A stretch of 50,126 nt of DNA from the sequence record MZ501051. One strand, 5' to 3'. The translations under genes were made by a program, and so were the position numbers. Below are positions 2,757 to 48,681 of the stretch, in pieces (within the stretch, counting starts at the first letter, position 1; each line of letters starts with the position of its first letter). This stretch comes from Escherichia phage AugustePiccard. The notes under the pieces are model-generated. The model saw nothing but the letters and a program-made list of their open reading frames with translations, ran no database searches and was not told where the DNA came from.

Positions 2757-2787
2757 TACCTTACCAAAACGAGAGGAGAAAAGATAA

Positions 2788-3168
2788 ATGACAAAAAAAT
2801 CAAAGGCTGTATATCTTGGCAACACCGAAGGAGAGTATTATGGTTTCACTGTAGGGAATGAATATGATGTTCACAATTATGAAACTGAAGATAACTTCAT
2901 TGGTACTTTTGGTGATGATGGTGGTTATCGTCACATCAAGAACGGAGCATTCCACAAGTTCGAACTCCTCGAGGATTATGATTTCGTAACTGAAAGCGAA
3001 TGCGCAGTCATGCCCCTTAGTTCCGATAAACAACCAGAGCTTAGATATTTCATAAACGGTCATGAGTTTAATAAGATTGAGTTCGAAAATGTGCGCTATA
3101 CTGTAAATCAACTTGATGAGGGCGGCGTAAAATGCGACACAATCAAGTTCGAAGTAAAATTCGAGTAA
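2788..3168 (+). CDS. hypothetical small protein (moron; paralogue of 17915..18232)
   Basis: Own box promoter and conserved leader; shares GEY.FT.G..Y pattern with ORF 17915..18232; followed by a terminator. Confidence 0.6.
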   Translation: MTKKSKAVYLGNTEGEYYGFTVGNEYDVHNYETEDNFIGTFGDDGGYRHIKNGAFHKFELLEDYDFVTESECAVMPLSSDKQPELRYFINGHEFNKIEFENVRYTVNQLDEGGVKCDTIKFEVKFE

Positions 3169-3189
3169 CCACAAAAGCTATGATAAACT

Positions 3190-3212
3190 AGCCCCCACAT
3201 GGGGCTTTTTTA
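3190..3212 (+). terminator. rho-independent terminator
   Basis: Hairpin GCCCC-ACAT-GGGGC plus T6. Confidence 0.7.
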
Positions 3213-3225
3213 TTGGAGAAACACA

Positions 3226-4488
3226 ATGGTAAAAACAGACAGCTACGCCAATATCTTTCTCGGCGGCAGTGATGGCAGTGAGATTTACGGGAGCTTACAG
3301 AATCAGGAACCTACTATTCTGGCTTCGCTTTATGCGGATAATGCCCTGGTGCGTCGAATTATTGACACAATCCCGGAAACAGCATTAGCGGCAGGATTCA
3401 ACATTGATGGTGTTGATGATGAATCTGCATTCTGGTCGCGCTGGGATGATTTGGAGATGACGCAGAATATTAACGACGCTTGGTCATGGGCAAGGTTATT
3501 CGGTGGAGCAGCAATTGTCGCTATCGTTAAGGACAATAGAGCGCTAACAAGTCCGGTCAGAGAAGGCGCCGAGCTTGAAACGGTTCGCGTTTACGACCGC
3601 ACACAGGTAAAAGTACAAACCCGCGAGGAAAATCCAAGAAACTCGCGATTTGGTAAGCCCCTAACCTATCGCATCACCACTAATGAGAGCGATATGTTCT
3701 TCGATGTGCACTACAGCCGTATTCACGTCATTGACGGAGAGCGAGTCCCTAACGTAATGCGCAGGCAGAATGATGGCTGGGGCCGCAGCGTTCTATCTAG
3801 TGACATTCTTGACTCGATTAAGGATTACACCAACTGTGAACGACTTGCCACGCAATTACTGAAGCGTAAGCAGCAAGCGGTGTGGAAAGCAAAAGGTCTG
3901 GCTGAGTTATGTGATGATAGCGAAGGATTCGGCGCGGCAAGATTAAGGCTTGCACAGGTAGATAATAACAGTGGCGTTGGTCAGGCGATTGGCATTGACG
4001 CGGAATCGGAAGAGTACAGCGTACTCAACTCTGATATTGGCGGGATTGATGCATTCCTGGATAAGAAGTTCGACAGAATCGTTGCGCTGAGCGGCATCCA
4101 TGAAATCATCCTGAAGAACAAGAACGTTGGCGGCGTGTCATCAAGCCAGAATACGGCACTGGAGACATTCCATAAGCTAGTTGACCGCAAGCGTAATGCT
4201 GAGCTACTTCCTATTCTTGAGTTCTTAATCCCGTTCATCGTTAACGTATCGGAATGGTCAGTTGAGTTTAACGCCCTCGCTCAGGAGTCCAGCAAGGATA
4301 AAGCCGAGATTCTTGAGAAGAACGTAAACAGTATCGCAGCACTAATTGCAGCTGGAGCTATGGATACTAACGAAGCCCGTGATACACTACGAACTATCGC
4401 GCCAGAGATTAAGATTGGTGAAGGTGATATTGAGGTTGAAGAACCAACTCAGGAAGTAATCGCGCAGACAGAGGAACCTAATGAATGA
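3226..4488 (+). CDS. portal protein
   Basis: About 420 aa, follows the terminase; acidic C-terminus; RBS GGAG before ATG 3226 (the track start at 3199 lies inside the terminator hairpin). Confidence 0.65.
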   Translation: MVKTDSYANIFLGGSDGSEIYGSLQNQEPTILASLYADNALVRRIIDTIPETALAAGFNIDGVDDESAFWSRWDDLEMTQNINDAWSWARLFGGAAIVAIVKDNRALTSPVREGAELETVRVYDRTQVKVQTREENPRNSRFGKPLTYRITTNESDMFFDVHYSRIHVIDGERVPNVMRRQNDGWGRSVLSSDILDSIKDYTNCERLATQLLKRKQQAVWKAKGLAELCDDSEGFGAARLRLAQVDNNSGVGQAIGIDAESEEYSVLNSDIGGIDAFLDKKFDRIVALSGIHEIILKNKNVGGVSSSQNTALETFHKLVDRKRNAELLPILEFLIPFIVNVSEWSVEFNALAQESSKDKAEILEKNVNSIAALIAAGAMDTNEARDTLRTIAPEIKIGEGDIEVEEPTQEVIAQTEEPNE

Positions 4489-4521
4489 TGAATTTGATGG
4501 CTTTTAGTGAGGAGAATTGGG

Positions 4522-5613
4522 ATGTCTAAAATCCGCTATGACAGCGCAAAGGTGAAAGCCCGATTTGATGAAAACGGTTTTCTGGTTGATACCCCGATTG
4601 TTGCTCGCGTCGGGGTGCAAACATACTACCTTCCGGACGGTACAGAACGCAGAGAATTTAGACCAGCCTCAGAGGTCTTTAAATCTGATTCTCTGGCTAG
4701 TTATCAGGGTAAGCCAATTACCTTAGGTCATGTGTTTGTTAACGCAGACAATGCTAAAGAGGTTGTTGTGGGTGCAGTATCTGGCTCAGCAATGCGCGAA
4801 GATTCAAGCGTGATTGTTCCGCTAACCATTTACGATAAGGAGTCAATCGAGAAGGCCAGAAATGGGATCGCTGGTGAGTTGTCGGTTGGGTACCACACTG
4901 TTGATGTTGAGTCCAAAGGCTGGGGTAGCAACGAAACCGGTGAATATAAGCTGGATGGAGAGTATGGCTCACAAGATGAGATTCCTTCTGACTGGGTTAG
5001 ATTTGATGCTCTACAAACCGAAATCAAGGTAAACCACGTCGCTCTTGTTTATAAAGGTCGCGCCGGTGTGGCCAAACTTAACTTTGACGCTCATCAGGAA
5101 AACCCGTATACTACTGACGTTGATATCAATAAAGAGGATAAACAGGAAATGACAGTTAAAATTAAACTCGACGGCGCGCAGGAATTTGAAGTCGCACCGG
5201 AAATCGCTTCTCACATCGAAGCACTGAACGCAAAGGCTGACACCGCAATCGCTGAACGCGACGCACTGAAAGCTAAAGTAGATGCAATTCCATCTGAAAT
5301 CGAAGCTGCCGTTGCCAAAGCGAAAGCTGATGCTGATGCCCTGGCCGCTCTGGTTGCTGTTGCTGCTGAAGCTGGTGTTAAGGCTGACGGTCTGGATGCT
5401 AAAGGCATTAAAGTGGCTTACGTTAAAGAAGTCTCCGGACTTGATGTTTCCGAGAAATCCGACGCGTACATCGACGCGGCGTTCGACATTGCCAAAGAAT
5501 CTGATAAAATGGCTGAAGTACGTAAAGCGACTACCGCTTCCGACAAATCTGACAGCGCCGATGAGCCTAAGAAATTAGACCCGCGTGCTCGTTTAGCTAA
5601 AATTAAGAAATAA
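4522..5613 (+). CDS. prohead protease / scaffold-like protein
   Basis: Follows the portal; C-terminal Ala/Lys/Glu-rich coiled-coil region (EALNAKADTAIAERDALKAKVDA...) typical of scaffolds; RBS GAGGAG before ATG 4522. Confidence 0.55.
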   Translation: MSKIRYDSAKVKARFDENGFLVDTPIVARVGVQTYYLPDGTERREFRPASEVFKSDSLASYQGKPITLGHVFVNADNAKEVVVGAVSGSAMREDSSVIVPLTIYDKESIEKARNGIAGELSVGYHTVDVESKGWGSNETGEYKLDGEYGSQDEIPSDWVRFDALQTEIKVNHVALVYKGRAGVAKLNFDAHQENPYTTDVDINKEDKQEMTVKIKLDGAQEFEVAPEIASHIEALNAKADTAIAERDALKAKVDAIPSEIEAAVAKAKADADALAALVAVAAEAGVKADGLDAKGIKVAYVKEVSGLDVSEKSDAYIDAAFDIAKESDKMAEVRKATTASDKSDSADEPKKLDPRARLAKIKK

Positions 5614-5625
5614 GGAGTTATAAAC

Positions 5626-12747: not shown

Positions 12748-12749
12748 GC

Positions 12750-12793
12750 ATAGCACTTTTTGCCAAAGATCTTATTCAACTTTGCTGTATAGT
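12750..12793 (+). promoter_or_regulatory. box promoter for the tail-module lipoprotein
   Basis: ATAGCACTTTTTGCCAAAG, 22 nt, TATAGT, leader CATCGAAACGAAATGAGAG. Confidence 0.55.
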
Positions 12794-12826
12794 TACCTCA
12801 TCGAAACGAAATGAGAGATTAAAGAA

Positions 12827-17084: not shown

Positions 17085-17840
17085 ATGTTAAGTCCAAAGT
17101 TTGAAAATCAGTTGCAAAGCCTTTTCCCTGGCGAAATTGTGACACTAATCCAGGTTGATGGCACCTCCTTTGGCGGTCTCGTTTATTCGTTCCATAATGA
17201 GAACATTTCATACACGCCAGAGGAAATCATGCTGGCCCAGATGAATGGCGATCCACTACCAGAGAAGACAATCACATTTCGCGGAGAGGAATATGGACCT
17301 CGCCCATTCGGAATCTCTGGTATCAATATGACCTCTGACGGAAAGGCCAACAAAGTGACGCTAACAGTATCAAACGTAGACCAGCGAATTAGCGCATTGA
17401 TTCGAACATACAATGGACTGGTTAGGGCTAAGGTTACTATCTGGATTACTACGCGAGACAACATCAACGAAGATGGAAGCATTGCTGATGGGGACTATCG
17501 CAGGTTCGTTTACTTCATTGAGAGACCAAAGCAGGTTGATTACAAAACGGCATCATTTGAGCTTAGCTCACCTATGGATATGGATGGAATTTACATTCCT
17601 GCGAGACTTGTTCAGTCTGTTTGCTATTTTGCCTCCAGGGGATGGTATCGAAGTGGTAATGGGTGTTCATATGCTGGTAACAGATACTTTAACAAGGATG
17701 ATGAGCCGGTGGCAGACCCTTCATTAGACTTCTGTGCGGGAACTGTTAACAGCTGCAAGCTTAGATTCGGTGAGAATAATCAGTTGGATTTTGGCGGTTG
17801 CGCGGCGGCAAGCCTTCAGGCAAAAGCGAATCAAAGCTAA
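17085..17840 (+). CDS. minor tail protein (lambda gpL-like)
   Basis: C-terminal Cys cluster (C..SRGWYRSGNGC..C...C), consistent with the gpL Fe-S motif; position. Confidence 0.6.
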   Translation: MLSPKFENQLQSLFPGEIVTLIQVDGTSFGGLVYSFHNENISYTPEEIMLAQMNGDPLPEKTITFRGEEYGPRPFGISGINMTSDGKANKVTLTVSNVDQRISALIRTYNGLVRAKVTIWITTRDNINEDGSIADGDYRRFVYFIERPKQVDYKTASFELSSPMDMDGIYIPARLVQSVCYFASRGWYRSGNGCSYAGNRYFNKDDEPVADPSLDFCAGTVNSCKLRFGENNQLDFGGCAAASLQAKANQS

Positions 17841-17884
17841 ATAGCACGAATTGCTAAACACCAACGCGACGGATGGCGTATAGT
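17839..17884 (+). promoter_or_regulatory. box promoter
   Basis: AAATAGCACGAATTGCTAAA, 22 nt, TATAGT, leader TTCATCGAAACGAGAGGAG. Confidence 0.6.
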
Positions 17885-17914
17885 TACTTCATCGAAACGA
17901 GAGGAGATAAATAA

Positions 17915-24350: not shown

Positions 24351-24390
24351 TTTGTATTCCTTAGTAAGTTCGTTTCGTTTCGATGGAGTA

Positions 24391-24436
24391 ATAGTATCGC
24401 ATCCTTGCGATCAGTGTTTAGCAATTCGTGCTATTC
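24391..24436 (-). promoter_or_regulatory. box promoter for the Cor-like lipoprotein
   Basis: Minus strand: GAATAGCACGAATTGCTAAA, 22 nt, TACTAT, CCATCGAAACGAAACG; the box encodes the methyltransferase C-terminus N-S-T-N-C-stop. Confidence 0.6.
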
Positions 24437-25107: not shown

Positions 25108-25136
25108 ATTAAAACCCCTCTCGTTAAAGTGCGGCG

Positions 25137-25181
25137 ATTATACCGCGCAAAATTTATTGTTCTTTGGCAATTCGTGCCATA
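25137..25181 (-). promoter_or_regulatory. box promoter for the methyltransferase-like gene
   Basis: Minus strand: GGCACGAATTGCCAAAG, 22 nt, TATAAT, leader AACGAGAGGGG. Confidence 0.55.
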
Positions 25182-26348: not shown

Positions 26349-26408
26349 GATTTGATGTTCGGCCTGAAATTCAGGTTGGATGACGACACCATTGCCGCCA
26401 TGCGCCTA

Positions 26409-26455
26409 AATATAACTAAAGATACCCAGTTGTCTTTAGCAATTAGTGCTATTTA
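26409..26455 (-). promoter_or_regulatory. box promoter for the Rha gene
   Basis: Minus strand: AAATAGCACTAATTGCTAAA, 22 nt, TATATT. Confidence 0.5.
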
Positions 26456-26624: not shown

Positions 26625-26939
26625 ACTATGTATATCATGTAACTACTTCTATGGAGTGTTCCGGTTGTAATTTTAATATCATGTGGATTTATACAGTATC
26701 TAACAATCAGCATAGCAACGCACCCTCCTTGAAGAATGGTATACACGATATACACGCTGGTTACATTGAGCTATAGCTGGTCTGGGGTGCCAAAAAGCGT
26801 AACTAGTGGCAGTGCCTACACGGAATTACAAGGATTCACGCGTAAACTTAATAAATTGATAGGCACAAACGATATGACTTATCACCTCCTAGTGCATATA
26901 GTTATCTCATCGAAAGCAAACAACCAGAGAGATAAAGAA

Positions 26940-27137: not shown

Positions 27138-28103
27138 ATGAGCTTTAAAGTTTTTACGCGAGAGGAACTAAGCAACGAGGCTTATCATAACGAGACTGAG
27201 CATATATCAGGCAGTTCAATTGTCGAGATTATCCAGGGCTCTCCGGCTAAGTGGAAGTTTAAACAGCGTAATAATGATAGCAAGGCTCTTAAGTTCGGAA
27301 CGCTGAGTCACACATACATCCTAGAGGGTGACGTGTTTGATAAAGAATACCTGAGAGCAACTGACCTTGACTCAATTGAAGGATTGATTACCAGCCAAAC
27401 CGGTTTGGCTGCGGCACTTAAGAAAGTTGGTGTGGCTGGCACGTCAGGGAAGGGGTATGGCGAGCTTGTAGAGATGATGTATCGCTCTGGTGAGGATTGG
27501 CCTGTTAAATGGCTAATTGAGCAGAAGGAGAGCGCTCAGGCGCTTGTGGAGGGTAAGGAGTTAGTTAGCGCAGCGGACTACGACAAAGTGGTGGCGATGC
27601 GTGAGGTTCTTTGCAATATTCCGGCATACGATAAGATTGTTAATAGTGAGACGGCGCAGAAGGAGTTATCAATCTTCGGTGAGATTCTAGGCGTTGGCGT
27701 TAAGATTCGAATCGACCATGTTGACGTTATTGATGGAGTCGTTCGGATCACAGACTATAAAACGACAGCGGACGCAAGCCCTGAGGGATTTGGCAAATCG
27801 GCATTCTCGCACGGGTACCTTGCAAAAATGTCGCTTCAGCGCGATCTGTTTGTGAAGGCATTCAACGAGAAGCGAAAGGTTGTTGTGGGATTGTTAGCAC
27901 AGGAGAAGGTAGAGCCATACTTACCAATGCTTTACACCTTGACGGACGAGCAGTTACGAATTGGTAGGTTGCAGTATCTTGAGGCGTTGGCCACTTATAA
28001 GAAGTGCAAGGAGCTAGATATCTGGCCGGGGTACTCGAATGGGATTACAGAGCAAGAGCTACTAGTTCCTGAGTGGGCACTGAAACAATACAAAGAAATA
28101 TAA
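27138..28103 (+). CDS. PD-(D/E)XK-family exonuclease (recombination exonuclease)
   Basis: Motif IDHVDVIDGVVRITDYKTT (D...D-x-K core); directly upstream of erf and ssb. Confidence 0.5.
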   Translation: MSFKVFTREELSNEAYHNETEHISGSSIVEIIQGSPAKWKFKQRNNDSKALKFGTLSHTYILEGDVFDKEYLRATDLDSIEGLITSQTGLAAALKKVGVAGTSGKGYGELVEMMYRSGEDWPVKWLIEQKESAQALVEGKELVSAADYDKVVAMREVLCNIPAYDKIVNSETAQKELSIFGEILGVGVKIRIDHVDVIDGVVRITDYKTTADASPEGFGKSAFSHGYLAKMSLQRDLFVKAFNEKRKVVVGLLAQEKVEPYLPMLYTLTDEQLRIGRLQYLEALATYKKCKELDIWPGYSNGITEQELLVPEWALKQYKEI

Positions 28104-28147
28104 ATAGCACGAATTGCTAAAGACAAAATTAACGAGTGGGGTATGAT
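28103..28147 (+). promoter_or_regulatory. box promoter upstream of erf
   Basis: AAATAGCACGAATTGCTAAA, 22 nt, TATGAT; box starts right after the exonuclease stop. Confidence 0.6.
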
Positions 28148-28264
28148 TGCCCCATCAACAACGAACGAGGTTAAAATTATGAATCTTCACCCATTTACAT
28201 ATATCCACATTACTGCTTGGATCGGTTTGTTCATTTACTTATTCAATCGATAAGGATTTTAAAG

Positions 28265-31924: not shown

Positions 31925-31947
31925 AATTTCAACTCCTATTTTTATTG

Positions 31948-31965
31948 ATAGCACGAATTGCTAAA
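31948..31965. promoter_or_regulatory. palindromic box copy upstream of the tail fibre gene (orientation ambiguous)
   Basis: ATAGCACGAATTGCTAAA only about 25 nt from ATG 31924, with no correctly spaced -10 on the gene side. Confidence 0.35.
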
Positions 31966-33936: not shown

Positions 33937-34037
33937 TTCATTACCTCGATAGCATTTTTTGTTAAAAGTCATTCTGATTTGATGGTAGTATTGTACTCAA
34001 TTAAACGCTACAAGACAATTTTTATAGGAATTTAGAT

Positions 34038-36032: not shown

Positions 36033-36448
36033 ACATAACAGATAAAGAAGATTACATTGAGTTTTACCCGGGCCCGGTTAAGTATTGCCCTAAAGAGGAT
36101 GACGAGCAAATCTTTTGCTCTGATTGGGTTAAGTATCATTACCCTCAGATTGTTTACTGGCACACGGTTAATGAATCGATGAAGACCATTGGACAGGCAA
36201 GAAAAGACCAGGCCAAAGGTTTGCTTAAGGGGGTTTCGGACTGCTTATTCCTGATACCTGAATCACTTCGTGGTAAATACCCTTTTGGAGCCATAGAGCT
36301 AAAAAGGGCCGGGAAGACGCAGGCGAGTCCAGTCAGCGACGAACAGAAGTCCTTCCTTAAGAGCGTCAGAGAATCGGGCGGCTTCGGGGCTGTAGCTTAC
36401 GGACGTGAGGGTTTTCTTGCGGCATTCAAAGAAATGATTTCAAAATAG
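36029..36448 (+). CDS. VRR-NUC domain nuclease
   Basis: Motif DCLFLIPE...GAIELKRAGK (D..E.K core); overlaps helicase stop (ATGA). Confidence 0.55.
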   Translation: MNITDKEDYIEFYPGPVKYCPKEDDEQIFCSDWVKYHYPQIVYWHTVNESMKTIGQARKDQAKGLLKGVSDCLFLIPESLRGKYPFGAIELKRAGKTQASPVSDEQKSFLKSVRESGGFGAVAYGREGFLAAFKEMISK

Positions 36449-36488
36449 CACGAATTGCTAAAGACGTTTCGGTGAGTTGGTGTATTAT
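36443..36488 (+). promoter_or_regulatory. box promoter
   Basis: AAATAGCACGAATTGCTAAA, 22 nt, TATTAT, leader TTCATCGAAACGAAACG; the TAG is the VRR-NUC stop. Confidence 0.6.
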
Positions 36489-36526
36489 CTATTCATCGAA
36501 ACGAAACGCACAAAGAGAGAAACAAA

Positions 36527-37038: not shown

Positions 37039-37226
37039 TTGGAATCTGCGTAAAAACAAATGGACGCTTTACACTGCTCGAGGATTACGAAATCAACTTT
37101 GATTCAGGCGGCGCAATAACAGTAAAAGGAGAAGATGAATTACATTGGTTCCTTAGTTATCAAGGTGATGGCTACTACGGTTGCACGGATTGCTACGGAA
37201 AAGAAGTTAGCTTCTTAGTAGAATAG
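37035..37226 (+). CDS. hypothetical protein
   Basis: ATG 37035 with RBS GGAGGA; ATGA overlap with upstream stop. Confidence 0.45.
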   Translation: MIGICVKTNGRFTLLEDYEINFDSGGAITVKGEDELHWFLSYQGDGYYGCTDCYGKEVSFLVE

Positions 37227-37266
37227 CACTTTTTGTTAAAACTCAAATCCAGGGATGGATTATATT
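37222..37266 (+). promoter_or_regulatory. box promoter (variant box)
   Basis: ATAGCACTTTTTGTTAAA, 22 nt, TATATT. Confidence 0.5.
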
Positions 37267-37296
37267 AAGCACATAAACAACGAAGAGGGTTAAGAG

Positions 37297-37667: not shown

Positions 37668-37669
37668 GT

Positions 37670-38004: not shown

Positions 38005-39135
38005 ATGGCAACTGCAAAAATCACCAACGAACAATTGCGCGAAGAGCTAGCAAATGGCATGACCAACAAGGCAATCGCAGAGAAGTACGGAATGAACATT
38101 CGCAACGTTGAATTGCGTCGCAGTAAATTAGCGAAGAGTGGAGAATTGCACGGAAACCCGGGAATCAAGAAGTTAGTTCCTGACGGCTATTTGGTCAAAG
38201 GGACGTCAACGATGATTGACGCTGAGGGCAACGAAAAGATTCGCTGGGTTAAGACCTCTGTAGATAATGAGCGCCTTGAGGTTTTGATGGAACAGGCTCG
38301 AGAGGCATTCTGCTCTGAGTTGCCAAAGGCAGATTCGGTCACCCACTCAGGCAATGAGGTCAACTCTGAATTAATGACTCTTTACCCTATTTTCGATATC
38401 CATATCGGCATGATGGCTCATCGACATGAGTCTGGTGAAAATTATGACACCAATACCGCAGAGAAATTAATGGAATCATATTTCGATCATGCAATTTCTG
38501 TATCGCCATCCTCAGAGAAAGCTGTGATTTTAGTTGGCGGCGACTTCCTTCACTCTGACGGATTGGAAGCTGTAACCCCAGCAAGCGGACACTGCCTTGA
38601 TCAGGATAGTAGGTATGCTAAGTTAGTTTATGTTGCGATTCGCTCAATTCGTGGTGCCGTAGAGAAGATGCTTAAGAAGCATAAGAATGTCGAGATTCAG
38701 ATTATAGAGGGAAATCATGACCAGAGTGGTATGATTTGGCTCCGTGCGGCAATGGCTGCATTTTATGAAAACGAGAGTCGCGTCTTTGTTGATACCAGTC
38801 CGGCAATCATGCACAAAACTAGATTTGGCTCAACATTACTTGGTTACACACACGGCCACACAATGAAGAAGGCAGAAGGCAGGCTTGCAGCTATGGCAAC
38901 TGATTACAGGAAAGATTTTGGTGAGTGTGAATTTGTTTATTGCCATTCCGGGCATTTTCACCACGCAACTGTTACAGAGTGCACACTTGGGATTGATGAG
39001 GTTCACCCAGCCCTGGCTAGCAAGGATGCATATGCCGCTCGCGGAGGGTGGCGATCATATCGCCAAGCGGCTGCAATTGTTTACCACAAGAATTTTGGCG
39101 AGGTTGGTCGACACATTTATCGCCCCGGTATGTAA
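38005..39135 (+). CDS. metallophosphoesterase (calcineurin-like) with N-terminal HTH domain
   Basis: N-terminal HTH-like segment (MTNKAIAEKYGMNIRNVELRRSKL); phosphoesterase motifs DIHIG, GGDFLHSD, GNHD, THGH, GHFHH. Confidence 0.6.
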   Translation: MATAKITNEQLREELANGMTNKAIAEKYGMNIRNVELRRSKLAKSGELHGNPGIKKLVPDGYLVKGTSTMIDAEGNEKIRWVKTSVDNERLEVLMEQAREAFCSELPKADSVTHSGNEVNSELMTLYPIFDIHIGMMAHRHESGENYDTNTAEKLMESYFDHAISVSPSSEKAVILVGGDFLHSDGLEAVTPASGHCLDQDSRYAKLVYVAIRSIRGAVEKMLKKHKNVEIQIIEGNHDQSGMIWLRAAMAAFYENESRVFVDTSPAIMHKTRFGSTLLGYTHGHTMKKAEGRLAAMATDYRKDFGECEFVYCHSGHFHHATVTECTLGIDEVHPALASKDAYAARGGWRSYRQAAAIVYHKNFGEVGRHIYRPGM

Positions 39136-39179
39136 ATAGCACCTTTTGTTAAAACAGTAGCCGCGAAAGCGGCTATTAT
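39133..39179 (+). promoter_or_regulatory. box promoter upstream of HNH copy 3
   Basis: AAATAGCACCTTTTGTTAAA, 22 nt (contains hairpin GCCGCGAAAGCGGC), TATTAT. Confidence 0.55.
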
Positions 39180-39207
39180 TGTTTTATACAAACGATAGGA
39201 GATTGAA

Positions 39208-39693
39208 ATGAATTGGCATGATATTTTTGAATACAACGATGGCATTCTTTATCATAAAGTTAAGTTATGTATAAGAAATGATGTTAACGTTGGTGATATT
39301 GCTGGGGGGGGCGTTAGGCAAAACGGCTATCACTACGTGAATTACAAAAATAAGTTTTACAAAAGGTCAAGGGTTGTATGGGAGATGTTTAATGGAGATA
39401 TACCTGAGGGATTTGTCATTGATCACGTCAACCATGACGCGACAGATGACAGGATAGAAAACCTAGAGTGCAAGGAGCGCAGGGATAACATGGTTAATGT
39501 AAAGCTAAGGATTGATAGCTCCTCTGGTGTAACTGGTGTAGCAAGAAAGAGCGGTAATAAGTGGAGGGCATACATAACAATCATGGGTAAGCAGAAGTCC
39601 AAGAGCTTTAACACGTTTGAGGATGCTTGCGCACAGAGGATTGAATGGTCGGTAACTCATGATTTTCACCCAAATCACGGTGGAAAATACTAA
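39208..39693 (+). CDS. HNH homing endonuclease with AP2-like domain (copy 3)
   Basis: Motif IDHVNHDATDDRIENLE; N-terminus MNWHDIFEY; own box promoter. Confidence 0.75.
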   Translation: MNWHDIFEYNDGILYHKVKLCIRNDVNVGDIAGGGVRQNGYHYVNYKNKFYKRSRVVWEMFNGDIPEGFVIDHVNHDATDDRIENLECKERRDNMVNVKLRIDSSSGVTGVARKSGNKWRAYITIMGKQKSKSFNTFEDACAQRIEWSVTHDFHPNHGGKY

Positions 39694-39737
39694 ATAGCAC
39701 TTTTTGCCTAACCCATGCCGTAGAAATGCGGCATAAT
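39693..39737 (+). promoter_or_regulatory. box promoter (variant)
   Basis: AAATAGCACTTTTTGCCTAA, CATAAT, leader CACATCGAAACGAG. Confidence 0.5.
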
Positions 39738-39778
39738 CACCACATCGAAACGAGATTAACTAAACGAGGAAACGCAAG

Positions 39779-39955: not shown

Positions 39956-39980
39956 CACAGAAAAAACATAGCGTTAAGCA

Positions 39981-41511: not shown

Positions 41512-41514
41512 TCA

Positions 41515-43098: not shown

Positions 43099-43172
43099 TA
43101 TTTCTCTCCGTGCTGATTCTGAGCGGTCATTATATCAACGACCGCTTATAATTCATTATCAATTTTTGCTAT

Positions 43173-43523
43173 TTACAGGTATTTCGCTTCAAATAGGTAA
43201 GTCTGACACAGGGTGTAAAAACCAACATCTTCACTGCGGTAAAGCTGCCAAGCATTGCCATCCTCATCGTAAATGTAACCGGCAGATTGACCAAGACCCG
43301 CGTGAAGATTTACCTGGTAACGTTTATTTTCTTTAAAGTCTTTTTTAACTCCTGACTTGTGGTTAACCTTTGTGCAGTAAAGCGTTTTGGTCTTAATGTA
43401 TTTGCCACGCTCTTCGAGGTTAATCCATTTGCCATCTTTCTTGATTTGCTCTGCACCATCCTTAACGCGAGCTTTGTACAATACGTTTTCGTTGCTAATC
43501 CAGTTTTTAGTTGTTGTTGTCAT
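43173..43523 (-). CDS. hypothetical protein
   Basis: 116 aa; box promoter and conserved leader upstream on the minus strand. Confidence 0.5.
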   Translation of the reverse strand: MTTTTKNWISNENVLYKARVKDGAEQIKKDGKWINLEERGKYIKTKTLYCTKVNHKSGVKKDFKENKRYQVNLHAGLGQSAGYIYDEDGNAWQLYRSEDVGFYTLCQTYLFEAKYL

Positions 43524-43560
43524 TTTATTTACCTTTCGTTATTTCGTTTCGATGAGATGA

Positions 43561-43607
43561 ATATACAGGAAAAGCCCCCGAAGGGCTTTATCAATTAGTG
43601 CTATTTC
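43561..43607 (-). promoter_or_regulatory. box promoter with terminator hairpin in the spacer
   Basis: Minus strand: AATAGCACTAATTGATAAA, 22-nt spacer holding hairpin AGCCCTTCGGGGGCT, TATATT, leader CATCTCATCGAAACGAAAT. Confidence 0.5.
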
Positions 43608-43748
43608 GAGCCTTTTCTATCGCCTTGAGCATAATCTCATGGCTCTCAAGCAAGTCCTCGCGGAACCAGTCCCCACAAGGCCAGCCCTTTCCGCTGTAGG
43701 CGCTTATTATTTCAAGATCGAAATAATTTATCTCAGATGGTAATAGCA

Positions 43749-43988
43749 TCATTTCACCTCATCAAAAGTTGCGATACCAGGAATAAACATCCCAAACTTC
43801 CAGCCAGCAATGGCAATCCATCCAGAATCGTGCTTGTGTGGTCGCTCAGCGCCATTAATTAACCATTCGTTCGGGATTGTCTTGCCGTTAATGATTAGCG
43901 GCTCAGCGTCGTATACAGAGCCTTTGACGAATGGTGTTAGAATCTTCTTGTCAGTGCTTGTAATGCAGTTAGTGCAGCGAATTTTCAT
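43749..43988 (-). CDS. hypothetical protein
   Basis: 79 aa, N-terminal CTNC. Confidence 0.4.
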   Translation of the reverse strand: MKIRCTNCITSTDKKILTPFVKGSVYDAEPLIINGKTIPNEWLINGAERPHKHDSGWIAIAGWKFGMFIPGIATFDEVK

Positions 43989-44179
43989 AACTGAATCTCC
44001 ACCTCATCCTCGAATAAGTTAATTGGTTCCCGTATTGAGTTGATAACGGTAAATGTTCTAATCCCCATCGCAATATCTCTGTCAACCACATCGTAGACAT
44101 TGCCAATGAAAAGGCCATAATCAGTTTCATTTGACCCGTCCATGTCAATATCTTTAAACTTAACTAACTTAATTTTCAT
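43985..44179 (-). CDS. hypothetical acidic protein
   Basis: 64 aa, overlaps downstream start. Confidence 0.4.
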   Translation of the reverse strand: MKIKLVKFKDIDMDGSNETDYGLFIGNVYDVVDRDIAMGIRTFTVINSIREPINLFEDEVEIQL

Positions 44180-44359
44180 ATCTCAATCCTCACCAGGGTA
44201 AACATTCTTCGCAGCCAAGCCCATCGCAGCACAGGAATTCATCTTCTGACTGGAATTGCTTCGCCAGGTCAATATCGATTCGTCCGCGCAAAACCATGTC
44301 TGTATACATCTCATTTAATCCAATCAGTGCAGATTCGTGGCGTAATTCATCTTTCTTAT

Positions 44360-44617
44360 TCATACCTTTTCCATCTCCGCAATAAAGCAGTTGACAACAA
44401 TCAACTTATCTTCGGTGTCCAGCTTCGATGCCTTAAGTGCCTCGACAAGGTTTTTAATGTCGATGCCGTCATGGAACAACTCGGCGCCAATGTTGCACAA
44501 CTGAACGCTATTGATCGTCGGCGTGCTAACACTAACTTTAATCGTGTCCGCCTTAGCAAATCCAATACCAGATGCCAGGACTGCCGCGATGTATCCAATG
44601 GTGATTAACTTTTTCAC
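44360..44617 (-). CDS. small secreted protein (signal peptide)
   Basis: N-terminal signal peptide MKKLITIGYIAAVLASGIGFAKA. Confidence 0.5.
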   Translation of the reverse strand: MKKLITIGYIAAVLASGIGFAKADTIKVSVSTPTINSVQLCNIGAELFHDGIDIKNLVEALKASKLDTEDKLIVVNCFIAEMEKV

Positions 44618-44796
44618 AAATCATTACCCTTTAAGCTGTCATATCTGATGGCGTCTCTGTTGCACTTTCTGGTCTTGCCATGAAGCACCTGCTTAAACTC
44701 AATTGTACCTTGCTGCCTTAGCTTTTTATATCTTCCTTGCGACTTACTTATTTCTTCAATCTTTTGTTGCGCTTTCAATTCCGGTCTCTGCTTCAT
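44614..44796 (-). CDS. hypothetical basic protein
   Basis: 60 aa, Lys/Arg/Gln-rich; first gene downstream of box promoter at 44824..44870. Confidence 0.45.
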   Translation of the reverse strand: MKQRPELKAQQKIEEISKSQGRYKKLRQQGTIEFKQVLHGKTRKCNRDAIRYDSLKGNDL

Positions 44797-44823
44797 ATCT
44801 ATACCCTCGTTGTTGATGAGCTA

Positions 44824-44870
44824 ACTATACCCTCAACAGCCGCGCTTGTCTTTAGCAAAAAGTGCTATTC
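44824..44870 (-). promoter_or_regulatory. box promoter for the leftward small-gene block
   Basis: Minus strand: GAATAGCACTTTTTGCTAAAG, about 23 nt, TATAGT, leader CATCAACAACGAGGG. Confidence 0.55.
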
Positions 44871-44895
44871 GTTAGATTTATGGATTGTTGCGGAT

Positions 44896-44939
44896 ATTGC
44901 AATGATTCCCATGATTATTGCACATATAGCAATATTGCT
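44896..44939. promoter_or_regulatory. cluster of short palindromes (ATTGCAAT, AGCAATATTGCT) in divergent region B
   Basis: Perfect palindromes sharing the TTGC/GCAA half-site with the promoter box. Confidence 0.4.
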
Positions 44940-45150
44940 TCAGATGCAATGATGTTTTTGATTGTTGCGAAATGAGCAATAAAGTAGTGAGTGAGTGAAT
45001 GAAAGATGGATGGACTACCATACAAGTTGATTTTGATTCTGCTAATCCATTTTCACGCTTACACGTAACGCCCGTAGCGCGATGTAAGCCAACGCCTATC
45101 GTTACGCGAGTTACGCGCAGCTACGCCTAGACTTACACTATAAGTGCCTA

Positions 45151-45200
45151 ATATATATATATATCTTCTTTCTATTATTATTATTATTATTATTATTATT
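45151..45200. repeat. microsatellite (AT)7 ... (ATT)9 in divergent region B
   Basis: atatatatatatat then (att) x9. Confidence 0.85.
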
Positions 45201-45405
45201 GTATGTAAGTCATGTAACGGGGTTTCCGGCGATATCTATATGTTTTTTCCTATCAGTTATAGCCTTGGCTATAATTTAAGGTATGGAGTGGGTGTTTTGG
45301 GGCCATTTGCCTCGTTACACGCACGACACGCCACTTACATTAAGCTATAGCTGGGCTAGCATACCATTTCGCGTAACGACCCCCAAAAGTTACCAAAAAT
45401 TACAC

Positions 45406-45434
45406 TTGACTACATGTGTAAGTCGGGATATGAT
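45406..45434 (+). promoter_or_regulatory. canonical sigma70-like promoter (TTGACT-17-TATGAT)
   Basis: TTGACT 45406-45411, 17-nt spacer, TATGAT 45429-45434, then leader AAACGAGAGGAG. Confidence 0.5.
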
Positions 45435-45465
45435 GGACTCAACTTAAACGAGAGGAGTGATAGAG

Positions 45466-45945
45466 ATGAACGAGAAAGTAACATTGGGCCAAGTGATTCG
45501 TGAGATGGTGAAAGCAGCGCTTAAGTCTGAGGACAAGCAGATCAGCGTGACACTCAACAAGATTGAGAGCCTTATCGGCGCCGAGGAGGGTGGTCTAAAT
45601 AAGCTTAAGAGCTCATACATCTACAATACAACGGCTCGCATGCCTGAGTTGAGAGATGCCGGACTGAAGGCGACTCACCACTATGATGAAGAAAGGGGTG
45701 TTAATGAATATACTGGGAGTGAGATACTTGGAGACAAAAAGCTTGTTATTAAACTAATTCCAGGCTCGGCAAACATTGGAATCAGGAAGAAGACCAACGA
45801 CGCGATCAAGGATGAGGCAATCACTGAGTTCAAAGCCAGGATTTCTAAGGTGATGCCAGACCTTTCTGCGTATGAAGGTGAGGCCCTTGCAGCCGCTATG
45901 AAGGCCATTAAGGATTACCGTTTGATTATTGAGGAGATTAAGTGA
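45466..45945 (+). CDS. hypothetical protein
   Basis: ATG 45466 after leader AAACGAGAGGAG; canonical sigma70-like promoter upstream. Confidence 0.5.
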   Translation: MNEKVTLGQVIREMVKAALKSEDKQISVTLNKIESLIGAEEGGLNKLKSSYIYNTTARMPELRDAGLKATHHYDEERGVNEYTGSEILGDKKLVIKLIPGSANIGIRKKTNDAIKDEAITEFKARISKVMPDLSAYEGEALAAAMKAIKDYRLIIEEIK

Positions 45946-46469
45946 TGTTTGACTTTAACGAGGATAAACTGACAGAAGAGCAGGTAATTGAGATAGCCAA
46001 GCAAGATGGGCTGCCGCCGCTGCGAATTGCAATCAATGCTAACGGGTATCGACAGTCAACGGCGTTTTGGGGCTCGATTGATACCTCAGGGGTGTATAGT
46101 GGTGATGAGCTTGGTGTAATGATTAAAATCATCAGGAAAATGGGAGTTAACGGCAAAGGAGTTGTTGGCGTCAGGTCTCTATATGAAGGTGCTCGCAAGC
46201 TGAAACCATTTGCGGGGCGCGATGGGATGATGCTACTGATTAAGGATAAGCTAATTCCAGAGCTCGACAAGATGAATATCACGTGCCTCATTGGCGATAA
46301 GATTTACGTCAACCCTGCCTTGACGGATTTAAGCTGGCATCCTAACTTCAAAACTTACGAAGGTGAGCACGCTAGTAGACTACCATACCACTTGCGGTAC
46401 ACTGAGGAAGAGGTGGAGAAGGCTATTGAGTTCTATCGGAAAGCTAAATCACTAATTATCGCCAAATAG
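45945..46469 (+). CDS. truncated paralogue of the 527-aa protein (N- and C-terminal modules only)
   Basis: N-terminus MFDFNEDKLTEEQV...LPPLRIAINANGYRQS and the segment NGKGVVGVRSLYEGARKLKPF...NITCLIGDKIYVNP align to the termini of ORF 41515..43098. Confidence 0.6.
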   Translation: MFDFNEDKLTEEQVIEIAKQDGLPPLRIAINANGYRQSTAFWGSIDTSGVYSGDELGVMIKIIRKMGVNGKGVVGVRSLYEGARKLKPFAGRDGMMLLIKDKLIPELDKMNITCLIGDKIYVNPALTDLSWHPNFKTYEGEHASRLPYHLRYTEEEVEKAIEFYRKAKSLIIAK

Positions 46470-46509
46470 CACGAATTGCTAAACAATGGATCGGGTAGTC
46501 AGCTATGAT
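46464..46509 (+). promoter_or_regulatory. box promoter
   Basis: AAATAGCACGAATTGCTAAA, 22 nt, TATGAT, leader TTCATCGACAACAAAGAGG. Confidence 0.6.
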
Positions 46510-46533
46510 TACTTCATCGACAACAAAGAGGAA

Positions 46534-46746
46534 ATGAAGATGAAAAACGTTATTATTGAAGATATTCACTTTGACCAAGCTGAGGTAGGAATCGCAAAAA
46601 GCGTTCGCGGAAACGTTGTATATCTGAACTTCGATCCAGATAACTACGGGGACGGCCAGACACTGATGCAGTACAGTCCTGAGCAAGCACGCAAACTGGC
46701 GGCGGCGTTAATCATGGCAGCGGACGAGGCGGAGAAGCAGCGATAG
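46534..46746 (+). CDS. hypothetical small protein
   Basis: ATG after box promoter and leader (CATCGACAACAAAGAGGAA). Confidence 0.45.
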   Translation: MKMKNVIIEDIHFDQAEVGIAKSVRGNVVYLNFDPDNYGDGQTLMQYSPEQARKLAAALIMAADEAEKQR

Positions 46747-46786
46747 CACGAATTGTTAAAAAGGGATTCATCCTGACTGGTATAAT
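46743..46786 (+). promoter_or_regulatory. box promoter upstream of the long kinase leader
   Basis: ATAGCACGAATTGTTAAA, 22 nt, TATAAT. Confidence 0.6.
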
Positions 46787-47001
46787 CCCCACATCAACAA
46801 CGAGACACTACTTATCAGGTATGTGACTATGGCGATAAAGTCCATGCCGGACTAGGTTCGCACGGCGTCGATAATAAGTGACAATATACGAACATAAATT
46901 CAGCAGCAGGGGTATTGATATGCTCCTGCACTATTTAGACGAAAAATACGCAAATCTCATGCTTAAGACGCATGGTGGCAAAATAACGAGGATTAACATA
47001 A

Positions 47002-47616
47002 ATGGCTAAAATCATCATTCTTAATGGACCAGCTGGAGTGGGCAAAGACACTATCGGAAACGCGTTACACTATGATTACCGATGTATACAAACAAGCTTT
47101 AAGCGTCCAATGTTTGAAATTGCCGAGTCAATCCTGGGGGCCGGGGCGTTCAGTAAGTTCATCACGGCTTATGATGACCGAGATCAGAAAGAGATGCCTC
47201 AGAGCTTCCTTGGTGGCAAGACGTGCCGCGAGTTCATGATCTGGATTAGCGAGTCGGTAGTCAAGCCGCTATTTGGCAATCAGCAGTTCGGTAAGCTAAT
47301 GAGCGAACATATCAAGCTGTGTGACGAAGGATTAACGTTCGTTTGCACTGATGGCGGTTTCGCTGATGAAGTTATCCAGCTTGTTGAAGATGGTCACGAT
47401 GTTACGCTGGTGCGACTTTTTATGGAAGGCAAGACCTTCGCAGGCGATAGCCGTAATTACATCCGAATCAAGGAATCGCACTTCCCTGATTATAAAAAGT
47501 ATCAGGAGCATAGCGTTCGCCTGGTTAATGGTGACATTGGTGGCGGCGTATTGGCGGTGGCTGAGGCTTGCGGACTAACCTCAGATTACGAATGGGTAGA
47601 CGATATTCCCTGGTAA
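47002..47616 (+). CDS. P-loop nucleotide kinase (dNMP-kinase-like)
   Basis: N-terminal P-loop IIILNGPAGVGKDT, as in phage dNMP kinases; about 200 aa. Confidence 0.5.
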   Translation: MAKIIILNGPAGVGKDTIGNALHYDYRCIQTSFKRPMFEIAESILGAGAFSKFITAYDDRDQKEMPQSFLGGKTCREFMIWISESVVKPLFGNQQFGKLMSEHIKLCDEGLTFVCTDGGFADEVIQLVEDGHDVTLVRLFMEGKTFAGDSRNYIRIKESHFPDYKKYQEHSVRLVNGDIGGGVLAVAEACGLTSDYEWVDDIPW

Positions 47617-47660
47617 ATAGCACGAATTGCTAAACCCGCTCCGGCGGGTTTTGTTATAGT
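47615..47660 (+). promoter_or_regulatory. box promoter with terminator-like hairpin in the spacer
   Basis: AAATAGCACGAATTGCTAAA, spacer CCCGCTCCGGCGGGTTTTG, TATAGT. Confidence 0.6.
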
Positions 47661-47689
47661 TAGTTCACACCAAACGAGAGGTAAGAGAA

Positions 47690-47908
47690 ATGATTACGAT
47701 TAACCTGTCAGACAAGCAAGCCGCCGAACTCAAGTCCATGTTGTCAATATTTGAGAAGCCAAATGACCGAGCAATTGCAAAAGAGGTCATGACTCAAATC
47801 AATAATCAGCAGTTCGACGTAAGTGACTTCGAGTCATCACGGCAGTACGAGGCGCTTAGTGTTAATGCGGCATACCTGACCAACTGGGATAAGGCGACTA
47901 AGAAATGA
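47690..47908 (+). CDS. hypothetical protein
   Basis: 72 aa after box promoter and leader. Confidence 0.45.
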   Translation: MITINLSDKQAAELKSMLSIFEKPNDRAIAKEVMTQINNQQFDVSDFESSRQYEALSVNAAYLTNWDKATKK

Positions 47909-48042
47909 TTTACATCCACACGTACTACACTGGCAAGTTTAACAGTGTTAAGCACATTAGTGTTCACGATACGTACGATAGCGCAAAGGCTCAGTGGTTG
48001 GTTCTTGGCGGCGATATTAATTCATATAGAGTTGCTGAATAG
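47905..48042 (+). CDS. hypothetical small protein (45 aa)
   Basis: ATGA overlap with upstream stop; its stop TAG is part of the next box. Confidence 0.3.
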   Translation: MIYIHTYYTGKFNSVKHISVHDTYDSAKAQWLVLGGDINSYRVAE

Positions 48043-48082
48043 CACTAATTGATAAAACAGCATTGGGGTAATTTGCTATAGT
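48038..48082 (+). promoter_or_regulatory. box promoter (variant)
   Basis: ATAGCACTAATTGATAAA, 22 nt, TATAGT, leader CCCCATCGAAACGAGCGAGG. Confidence 0.55.
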
Positions 48083-48112
48083 TACCCCATCGAAACGAGC
48101 GAGGTCAAAGAG

Positions 48113-48292
48113 ATGAGATTCACCCAATCAGAGCCAAAGCTACAGGCCAACCACTTCGATGGCTACGCAACATTCATCATTGCCCAAGCCTGCGGAATGC
48201 GAGACGAGCCTCAGGTTCACACCATTCACTTGACCGAAGAGCAGGCTCGAGAGTTGTCTTACGAAATTCTAGAGCAATTGAATAGAATTTAA
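48113..48292 (+). CDS. hypothetical small protein (59 aa)
   Basis: Box promoter and leader (CATCGAAACGAGCGAGG) directly upstream. Confidence 0.4.
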   Translation: MRFTQSEPKLQANHFDGYATFIIAQACGMRDEPQVHTIHLTEEQARELSYEILEQLNRI

Positions 48293-48343
48293 CGCGTCTA
48301 AAACGCATTCTAACGAACAATAATTTAAGCGAGGTGATTCATC

Positions 48344-48469
48344 ATGGGAGCACAAGAAAGCCCCGTAGAGTGGTGCAAGCGAATGCAGGACGAAGCTAAA
48401 ACTGGCGAAGAGGCGATGGCCTACTACGAGCTGGCGCAAATGTGGATGCAACGGGAGAAGAAACAATGA
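48344..48469 (+). CDS. hypothetical small protein (41 aa)
   Basis: RBS GAGGTG; stop overlaps next ATG (ATGA). Confidence 0.3.
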   Translation: MGAQESPVEWCKRMQDEAKTGEEAMAYYELAQMWMQREKKQ

Positions 48470-48609
48470 GCTTCACTGAATATGTTATAGCATGTGAACG
48501 ACTGGTCTTTGATATGAAAACTTTCCACTGGTTCATAATTAAAGACTTAATAAAGCCTTACAAGCAGGGCGTTACCCCAGAGGCGTTTGTTAAGTCATTC
48601 TACAAATAG
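48466..48609 (+). CDS. hypothetical small protein (47 aa)
   Basis: Translationally coupled; its stop TAG is the TAG of the next box. Confidence 0.3.
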   Translation: MSFTEYVIACERLVFDMKTFHWFIIKDLIKPYKQGVTPEAFVKSFYK

Positions 48610-48649
48610 CACGAATTGCTAAACGAAGTCGCCACGGATGGCATATAAT
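48604..48649 (+). promoter_or_regulatory. box promoter
   Basis: AAATAGCACGAATTGCTAAA, 22 nt, TATAAT. Confidence 0.6.
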
Positions 48650-48681
48650 TACCCTATCAATACAAAGAGAGAGATTGAGAA

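Follow-up and report, generated by a model that had tools for sequence, protein, structure and literature searches.

Why does one stretch of eleven nucleotides recur unchanged behind promoter after promoter of a phage genome, and what reads it? The DNA considered here, 50,126 nucleotides of Escherichia phage AugustePiccard (record MZ501051; this whole 50-kb stretch is called the window below), is that of a T1-like (Rtp-like) siphophage of the Drexlerviridae. Its gene order is that of Rtp and T1, and its nearest relative is Escherichia phage Rtp (~86-87% nucleotide identity over 70-74% of queries). The recurring element is the leader CATCGAAACGA, found downstream of promoters that are headed by a box, AATAGCACnnnTTGnTAAA. 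A sequence-only reading of the window had taken the leader to embed the Shine-Dalgarno (SD) sequence and to be a shared signal for translational control or RNA processing. We describe the anatomy of the promoter cassettes, the fixed register of leader and -10 hexamer, the independence of the leader from box and SD, its recurrence across phage families and its composition. The same stretch occupies the same spot in promoters of unrelated phages, so it looks like a part of the promoter and not like a translation or RNA-processing signal. In our judgement, CATCGAAACGA and its variants are probably, though by no means certainly, the initially transcribed sequence (ITS) of a promoter of the promoter-early stem-loop (PeSL) type, conserved because the sigma70 RNA polymerase of the host reads it.

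The leader stands at a fixed distance from the -10 hexamer

CATCGAAACGA is present in seven exact copies in the window, where chance would provide 0.77 matches even with one mismatch tolerated. Five nucleotides upstream of the 11-mer there is a TAnnnT hexamer in all seven, and this -10 lies 20-21 nt downstream of the box, again in seven of seven. The cassettes with exact copies are:

12749..12826 (+): box 12749-12767, -10 TATAGT 12788-12793, exact leader 12799-12809, predicted +1 at 12800, start codon 12827
17840..17914 (+): box 17840-17858, -10 TATAGT 17879-17884, exact leader 17890-17900 running directly into GAGGAG, start codon 17915
24351..24435 (-): box 24435-24417, -10 TACTAT 24396-24391, exact leader 24385-24375, then AACGAAC (AACGA three times), start codon 24350
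36444..36526 (+): box 36444-36462, -10 TATTAT 36483-36488, exact leader 36494-36504, start codon 36527; 7-bp pairing of leader CGAAACG with spacer CGTTTCG
39693..39778 (+): box 39693-39711, -10 CATAAT 39732-39737, exact leader 39743-39753, SD ~20 nt beyond, start codon 39779
43524..43605 (-): box 43605-43587, -10 TATATT 43565-43560, exact leader 43554-43544, start codon 43523; spacer with terminator-like hairpin and T-run
48038..48112 (+): box 48038-48056, -10 TATAGT 48077-48082 between the inverted repeat TGGGGTA/TACCCCA, exact leader 48088-48098, start codon 48113

The box itself is found at 20 sites with at most two mismatches (0.11 expected), and 21 boxes in the window have a -10 behind them. 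Behind these 21, the 11-mer is exact in 7 and within three mismatches in 11; the remaining leaders are A/C-rich variants (CATCAACAACGA, CACACCAAACGA, TATACAAACGA) or unrelated sequence. A conserved leader, as the sequence-only reading had it, is therefore present far above chance, but its attribution to most box promoters was too generous, and the full 17-mer CATCGAAACGAGAGGAG is exact only at 17890, with five other matches at 2-3 mismatches. Nor does the leader generally embed the SD: GGAG adjoins ACGA directly only at 2762 and 17890 and partly at 25130, 47667 and 45441, whereas the other exact 11-mers are followed by 13-25 more nucleotides before the start codon.

Transcription from a sigma70 promoter usually starts 7 nt after the -10 hexamer, and this is the position of the A of CATCG. 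The earlier suggestion that the transcript begins at the motif thus gains support from the spacing, as well as from the annotated starts of two T7 promoters (see below), and we place the predicted +1 at this A.

The leader follows the -10 and is independent of SD and box

At -35 to -9 of promoter-proximal genes, AACGA was the top enriched 5-mer (18.7-fold), occurring at 45 of 101 such genes versus 20 of 405 genes without a box promoter. Among the latter, at least five have a canonical or near-canonical -35/-10 promoter in front of them. The promoter of T1 recE, for example, reads TTGACT-N17-TATAAT-ggatt-CATCGTAAACGA with no box, and similar box-less promoters with the leader are found at TLS recE, in Vc1 and at 45406 in the window. 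The leader behind the last of these shows that a ACGAGAGGAG-type leader is independent of the box. Two of the examples that the sequence-only reading had listed as box promoters are accordingly of another kind, one having a canonical promoter and the other a degenerate box:

45406..45465 (+): box-less sigma70 promoter, TTGACT-N17-TATGAT 45406-45434, leader AACTTAAACGAGAGGAG, start codon 45466
26897..26939 (+): degenerate box, -10 TATAGT 26897-26902, variant leader CATCGAAAGCA 26908-26918, start codon 26940

When phage sequences were scanned with the leader alone (CATCGAAACGAAAC), 63 of 102 distinct matches had TAnnnT exactly 5 nt upstream, and at most six had it at any other gap from 0 to 14 nt. 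Short conserved sequences upstream of many start codons, overlapping the ribosome-binding site, are found in Cluster K mycobacteriophages as start-associated sequences (SAS), whose anchor is the start codon, a few bases away. They resemble what the sequence-only reading had proposed. The motif described here differs from them: it is anchored to the -10, its distance from the SD varies and few genes without a promoter have it, so that it has no fixed short, promoter-independent distance to the start codon or SD.

The leader recurs in promoters of unrelated phages

Conservation in related phages had been named as a check on the leader, and it was confirmed: the motif is kept in eight Drexlerviridae genomes of seven genera, and well beyond the family. 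In T7, the promoters A1 and A3, which are used by Escherichia coli RNA polymerase, read CATCGAGAGG and CATGAAACGA, with annotated starts at the A of cagcCATCGAGAGGGA and of accaCATGAAACGACAG, respectively. By analogy, these near-copies support the start predicted for the window cassettes.

A scan of IMG/VR for TAnnnT-N5-CATCGAAACGA gave at least 109 box-less matches. Among the 109 listed, 75 had TTG at -35 spacing and 38 had TTGACA in at least five of six positions, where by our own estimate chance would give roughly 5% and 1.4%. The carriers included T4-like phage contigs and a Salmonella/E. coli siphophage of ~45 kb. In GC-rich phage contigs (L235, L179, L137) the arrangement is TAGACT-N5-CATCGAAACGAAACGAnCCATG, with ATG 18-20 nt later and no recognisable SD. 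About 50 lambdoid contigs among the matches listed carry the motif beside sieB, at a PL-like promoter with the transcript start ATCGAAACGAAACATCGA (for example L166:3991-3850 on the minus strand, L150:12811-12960, L151 and L194). Farther on, these transcripts contain conserved stem-loops, CTGCTTATTTAACAA, which resembles boxA, and a hairpin that resembles boxB, and no gene start is close by; from the resemblance to the lambda and rrn boxA/boxB consensus, we take them to be untranslated leaders of the PL-nutL type. The stem-loops upstream of boxA matched no Rfam family at the five loci searched. The put sites of HK022 were considered as the identity of these leaders and rejected; HK022 itself lacks the motif, and the leaders show boxA- and boxB-like nutL features.

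From -10 onward the cassette resembles a PeSL

PeSL cassettes were described in the T4-type phages RB49 and phi1 as intergenic units of ~100 bp that begin at the upstream stop codon and contain a sigma70 -35 and -10, a GGGG...CCCC stem-loop, an SD and a start codon (Arbiol et al. 2010, PMC2839356). The stem-loop usually lies between -35 and -10 or overlaps the -10, and it attenuates transcription about as strongly as the rrnB T1 terminator; the promoters are very strong experimentally, to the point that clones gather -35 and -10 mutations (PMC2839356). It is for PeSLs of RB49 alone that promoter and attenuator activity were demonstrated. Small open reading frames (ORFs) are shuffled by recombination between PeSLs, and in RB49 an exchange was mapped between -10 and ATG (PMC2839356).

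Reading the RB49 intergenic regions directly, we found CATCGAAACGA 5 nt past the -10 in the PeSLs of orf196 and orf198. Neighbouring RB49 PeSLs have CATACCGAAACGA, CATCAAGACGAGATAC and CATCAAAACGA instead, which are leader families of T1-like phages. Cassettes of T1 and of the window can be aligned with the orf198 PeSL over hairpin, -10 and leader. With a 72-nt T4-like cassette as query, blastn returned matches in Straboviridae and Drexlerviridae at 78-94% identity, and in the segment of hairpin, -10 and leader the T4-type and T1-type cassettes are 80-94% identical. What the two kinds of cassette have in common is a sigma70 -10, a GGGG...CCCC-type stem-loop with G-T pairs before or over the -10, the leader families CATCGAAACGA, CATACCGAAACGA and CATCAAAACGA 5 nt past the -10, and an association with small ORFs and recombination junctions. 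They differ in that T1-like cassettes have neither a TTGACA -35 nor an A-rich upstream region, but the invariant box AATAGCACnnnTTGnTAAA instead, and in that they occur in early, replication and structural regions, whereas PeSLs are concentrated in hyperplastic regions. To judge from these sequences, the T1-family cassette from -10 onward is a variant of the PeSL cassette, with the leader as its predicted transcribed end.

Anatomy of the cassette and the role of the box

For an information profile we collected 123 distinct box promoters from eight genomes of seven genera (the window, Rtp, T1, TLS, Klebsiella RAD2, Salmonella phSE-5, Vibrio Vc1 and mar001J1). Conservation is strong over the box (-52 to -31), and the spacer from -30 to -18 carries ~0 bits. 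In the -10 region T-12 is found in 106/123, T-10 in 102/123 and G-14 in 95/123, A-11 and T-7 being imposed by the selection filter. A+1 is present in 103/123, and C-3 and C-1 are also conserved. The leader consensus T2 C3 G4 A5 A6 A7 C8 G9 A10 A11 has 0.2-0.7 bit per position; together with C-3, C-1 and A+1 the range is 0.2-1.0 bit. Since the spacer is randomised between two conserved blocks while the leader is kept, the profile points to selection on the leader and not to recent copying.

The box contains the upstream stop codon in 16 of the 21 window cassettes (same-strand frame of at least 50 codons). The cassettes end in an SD and a start codon, and the median 5' untranslated region (5' UTR) is 25 nt. 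With the stop codon inside the box and so short a 5' UTR, each cassette spans the whole intergenic gap.

The box was already known as a repeat. In TLS, T1, Rtp and Rogue1, the 2024 paper on phage TLS found aaATAGCACnnnTTGnTAAAA ~76 nt ahead of start codons and asked what it does, guessing at a stoperator, an enhancer or an UP-element (PMC11447400). This 21-nt intergenic direct repeat of TLS, T1 and Rtp (19-21 nt in its variants) is the box that heads the 21 window cassettes. The TLS paper is confined to the repeat itself; neither the -10 at 20 nt nor the stem-loop or the leader figures in its account (PMC11447400). A literature search for the strings AATAGCAC and CATCGAAACGA returned only that paper as relevant.

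In place of the TTGACA -35 of PeSL cassettes, the box has TTGnTA at 22 bp from the -10. As an ordinary -35, its TTGCTA is ruled out by the 22-bp spacing. A sigma54 promoter was considered for the box as well and rejected: it has TGGCAC-like and TTGC blocks, but their GG and GC lie 2 nt too close together. In a consensus scan of 36000-50126 the box-less promoter at 45406 scored 10/12, whereas only two of the 12 box cassettes were listed (44852-44824 and 46480-46509), each with a weak non-TTG -35 and at the 9/12 floor; the matches totalled 22, no more than the shuffle mean of 26.2. The box is a quasi-palindrome, TAGCA-N5-TGCTA, centred near -42. A box in place of the -35, a TTGnTA 22 bp off and a quasi-palindrome near -42 make it plausible that the box promoters are factor-dependent. 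By inference only, a candidate for the factor is a Cro-type helix-turn-helix (HTH) protein that occurs family-wide in T1-like phages (826 phage records):

33463..33972 (-): gene of the Cro-type HTH protein, homologue of T1 gp23 and Rtp52; outside the leader

The helicase promoter at 33948-34037, whose box has C8 changed to T, overlaps the start of this divergent regulator gene, and the overlap could be an autoregulatory region. The -10 of the T1 helicase promoter is flanked by a 9-bp inverted repeat, AACGTTTAC/GTAAACGTT.

Stem-loops and module boundaries

A Watson-Crick stem of at least 6 bp straddles the -10 in 33% of box promoters, compared with 6% of controls in which the halves were swapped between promoters. 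The arms are formed by the spacer (-25 to -18) and by the discriminator with the first leader bases (-6 to +1, sometimes to +8). Folded from -32 to +14, the promoters have a minimum free energy (MFE) of -11.7 versus -7.9 kcal/mol (p = 9e-15), and in one fixed register we found 12 different compensated arm pairs, such as GGGGTA/TACCCC, AAGGCC/GGCCTT, AGGGGA/TCCCCT and AGAGGC/GCCTCT. The 5' arm precedes the predicted start, so the structure would be part of read-through RNA (acting in attenuation, as was shown for PeSLs) or of DNA, and not of the primary transcript. Inverted repeats with the -10 in the loop were seen in the window at 48064-48095, 43121-43146 (-), 28137-28154 and 36446-36504, in T1 at L002:1477-1502 and in RB49 at L297:11890-11925 (-). 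Such a repeat matches the subclass of PeSL stem-loops that overlap the -10.

Terminator-like hairpins with GNRA loops lie within the spacer at 39156-39177, 47632-47651 and 43585-43566 (-). Their T1 counterparts (L002:38973-39001, 39998-40024 and 41980-42007) are annotated as rho-independent terminators in the T1 record. The T-run of the spacer hairpin is at the same time the -10 hexamer, so the upstream terminator and the next promoter overlap.

When the window was compared with Rtp, 10 of 40 homology breakpoints fell within cassettes, which make up 3.2% of the window (1.3 expected). Breaks were seen at 2712, 17857, 24434, 28175, 39148/39693, 43173, 43520, 48039 and 48671. Small genes are present or absent between two cassettes, including an HNH-type ORF at 39208-39693 and the block 24435-26480; in this respect the cassettes behave as module boundaries.

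Composition of the leader

The ITS can shift promoter output by orders of magnitude; slow escape goes with two or three T, often within TG, among the first 7 nt, and productive yield correlates with purine content. No conserved ITS motif had been identified (PMC5961368). With the purine-rich ITS of T7 A1, escape was facile on three different promoters; a pyrimidine-rich 'anti' version of this ITS impaired escape (PMC12464699). By the rules of these two papers, the leaders have the features linked to escape, being purine-rich with few T or TG in the first 7-10 nt. At +2 to +10, TG occurs in 15% of leaders versus 45% of random genomic 9-mers, two or more T in 29% versus 72%, and purines make up 63%. 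The first 45 nt have an MFE of -2.3 kcal/mol; random segments reach -6.4 and the regions before promoter-less genes -6.8.

The ITS of strong sigma70 phage promoters (T7 A1 and A3, T5 N25; the 'downstream sequence region' of Kammerer et al. 1986, cited in PMC5961368) shares with the leader the CAT start context and the position from +1 to ~+11 that is predicted for the leader. The leader and the ITS of the T7 A1/A3 type are also alike in a purine-rich, T-poor non-template strand. ITS in general were described without a conserved motif (PMC5961368), whereas here there is an exact 11-mer in a fixed register in several phage families.

Signs of a structured RNA or a processing site were looked for within the leader. 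A mini-hairpin TCG-AAA-CGA showed no compensatory changes, and its pairing was barely above that of column shuffles, so no conserved, compensated structure was found inside the transcript. The longest complement to 16S rRNA was 7 nt, within the range of shuffled leaders. An Rfam search of the window for known RNA families gave only a tRNA, at 49558-49632 (56.9 bits); some relatives are annotated with tRNA-Arg.

Other cassettes of the window

The other 14 boxes with a -10 head the following cassettes:

2173..2239 (+): weak box AATAGCACTTTATGCAAAG, -10 TAACAT 2212-2217, leader unrelated to the motif; precedes an HNH-type ORF
2712..2787 (+): -10 TATAGT 2751-2756, variant leader TACCAAAACGA+GAGGAG (2762-2778), start codon 2788
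25108..25181 (-): -10 TATAAT 25142-25137, variant leader CACTTTAACGA+GAGGGG, start codon 25107
26349..26453 (-): box cassette, -10 TATATT 26414-26409, long unrelated leader, start codon 26348
28103..28178 (+): -10 TATGAT 28142-28147 between TGGGG/CCCCA, variant leader CATCAACAACGAACGAGG
33948..34037 (+): atypical box GATAGCATTTTTTGTTAAA, -10 TAGTAT 33986-33991, leader without the motif; precedes the helicase gene, divergent from the regulator gene
37222..37296 (+): -10 TATATT 37261-37266, variant leader CATAAACAACGA
39135..39207 (+): variant leader TATACAAACGA+TAGGAG; terminator-like GNRA-loop hairpin 39156-39177 in the spacer; HNH-type ORF downstream, not present in Rtp at the same position
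43099..43173 (-): box cassette, -10 TATAAT 43134-43129 between AGCGGTC/GACCGCT, leader CTCAGAATCAG without the motif
44797..44869 (-): -10 TATAGT 44829-44824, variant leader CATCAACAACGA
46465..46539 (+): -10 TATGAT 46504-46509, variant leader CATCGACAACA
46742..46803 (+): variant leader CATCAACAACGA; no start codon with SD in the cassette scan, next large listed ORF from 47002
47616..47689 (+): variant leader CACACCAAACGA+GAGG; terminator-like hairpin 47632-47651 in the spacer, T-run overlapping the -10
48605..48681 (+): -10 TATAAT 48644-48649, degenerate leader TATCAATACAAAGAGAGAG

One further box stands alone:

31947..31965 (+): orphan box GATAGCACGAATTGCTAAA, no -10 at 20 nt, strong hairpin behind

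It lies at the convergent junction of the tail-fibre and primase genes and is kept in Rtp (L001:33762) and T1 (L002:34902). In the output of the box-pattern scan, and only there, we saw collagen-like repeats in ORFs of both strands at 7616-9049, with minus-strand GGACCC/GGCCCA strings at ~8136-8640.

T1-like phages have a second leader motif, A(A)CCAATCAG(G)AGG, which ends in the SD. It was seen in T1 (L002:1505-1520, 4905-4925 and the region of 47117 on the minus strand), TLS (L003:5175-5195), RAD2 (L004:14960-14975) and Rtp (L001:520-545). It often stands behind a leader of the ATTGAAG/ATTCAAG type, and there the whole promoter, spacer included, is kept as a paralogous family with compensated stems.

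Interpretation of the leader

In the mechanism that we propose, the leader would be about -1 to +10 of a compact promoter cassette that fills the intergenic gap. Its parts would follow in the order box AATAGCACnnnTTGnTAAA with the upstream stop codon, 20-nt spacer, sigma70 -10, 6-nt discriminator, A(+1)TCGAAACGA, SD and start codon, and the spacer would often hold, or contribute to, a GC stem-loop. The T1 family may have swapped the -35 for a box of its own and kept the remainder, from -10 on, as in the T4-type PeSL. Host RNA polymerase would read the leader in choosing the start site and in leaving the promoter; a classical CAT start followed by ten T-poor, TG-poor and purine-rich bases would favour productive escape. 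A standard unstructured 5' UTR for whatever gene lies downstream would be a by-product. We infer the start from the distance to the -10, and the effect on initiation and escape from composition.

Several observations weigh against this explanation. Every compositional property would also agree with selection for an unstructured 5' UTR, and the C3-G4 and C8-G9 steps of the consensus resemble weak pause dinucleotides. Within the family, the offset of ACGA from +1 (mode 6-7, sd 3.4) varies less than its distance to the ATG (sd 5.4), but there the test of anchoring is only moderately discriminating because 5' UTR length is itself narrow. The near-exact motif is found in only a third of cassettes per genome, and the family-wide information per position is modest. 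The literature search found no start-site or transcriptome study of T1-like phages. Finally, the sharing between T4-type and T1-type cassettes is partly homology at the nucleotide level, so some of the recurrence across families may reflect horizontal spread of cassettes and not independent selection.

The leader might instead act at the 5' end of the RNA. Being A/C-rich and poor in U and G, it could be an unstructured platform for ribosome standby or S1 loading, or an end on which 5'-end-dependent decay acts poorly, and would then lift translation or stability of the promoter-proximal cistron. The weak structure of the leaders relative to random segments and to regions before promoter-less genes is what this would predict, the 5' UTR is held tightly at ~25 nt, and in some GC-rich contigs the motif runs directly into ATG with no visible SD (for example CATCGAAACGAAACGAACCATG). 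Against it, the motif is fixed to the -10 and not to the SD, and is rare before internal genes, which need translation too; it heads the untranslated nutL-type leaders of lambdoid phages, and its near-copy at T7 A1/A3 lies ~175-425 nt from gene 0.3. The complementarity to 16S rRNA is not unusual, and an exact 11-mer exceeds what composition alone would demand. We regard such a role as possible but doubtful, and on the same grounds, with the lack of a compensated internal hairpin and of an Rfam match, the translational or processing signal of the sequence-only reading found no support. Somewhat less probable still, and offered as speculation, is that CATCGAAACGA is a true sequence-specific 'initiator' of enterobacterial sigma70 promoters, recognised either by RNA polymerase itself in initial transcription or by a host factor for which it would be a tag at the RNA 5' end; unrelated families (T1-, T4-, lambdoid, T7-like and others) would have converged on it or traded it.

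It is unlikely, in our view, that the leader has no function of its own and is conserved only as part of a mobile, recombining cassette, at most providing homology for gene shuffling as in the PeSL model. The clustering of Rtp breakpoints in cassettes, the HNH-type and other small ORFs between two cassettes, the identity of T4-type and T1-type cassettes over hairpin, -10 and leader, and the exchange mapped in RB49 between -10 and ATG (PMC2839356) are all as such passive carriage would have them. Yet simple co-inheritance or gene conversion would not randomise the spacer and keep the leader; the window cassettes with exact leaders have unrelated spacers, the motif also stands at single-copy promoters that do not shuffle (lambdoid PL type, T7 A3), and 11 nt offer very little length for homologous exchange. 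The randomised spacer also led us to reject gene conversion or recent duplication as the only cause. Least probable, to the point of being remote, is a binding site for a phage or host protein, either a DNA operator (for instance for a repressor at +1 to +11) or an RNA tag for a transcript-marking factor. An exact 11-mer, 5-nt direct repeats of AACGA in some leaders (24385, 36494) and a conserved Cro-type HTH protein in T1-like phages would suit it. However, the motif occurs in families that share no regulator (T4-type, lambdoid, T7), has no dyad symmetry and follows box and canonical promoters alike; it has no known binder, and the literature search found the string in no relevant context.

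Significance for T1-like phages

The element is not of a new kind: it is the T1-family variant of PeSL cassettes. What appears to be undescribed in the literature searched is the link of the T1-family repeat to PeSL-type promoters, the fixed register of -10 and leader, and the sharing of one exact 11-nt start by T1-like, T4-like, lambdoid and other phages, with near-copies at T7 A1/A3. The question raised in 2024 about the 21-nt repeat receives a concrete answer: it is the head of a PeSL-like cassette, occupies the place of the -35 and has a -10 and a standard start at set distances behind it. A natural consensus shared by several unrelated phage families makes the role of the ITS in promoter strength directly testable, and if the 'initiator' reading were true, the ITS would have its first conserved consensus. 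Annotation of promoters, with their likely starts and embedded terminators, becomes possible across hundreds of Drexlerviridae genomes, in which standard -35/-10 scanners miss such promoters. Since the cassettes mark the junctions at which genes are swapped, they are relevant to phage mosaicism and to phage engineering.

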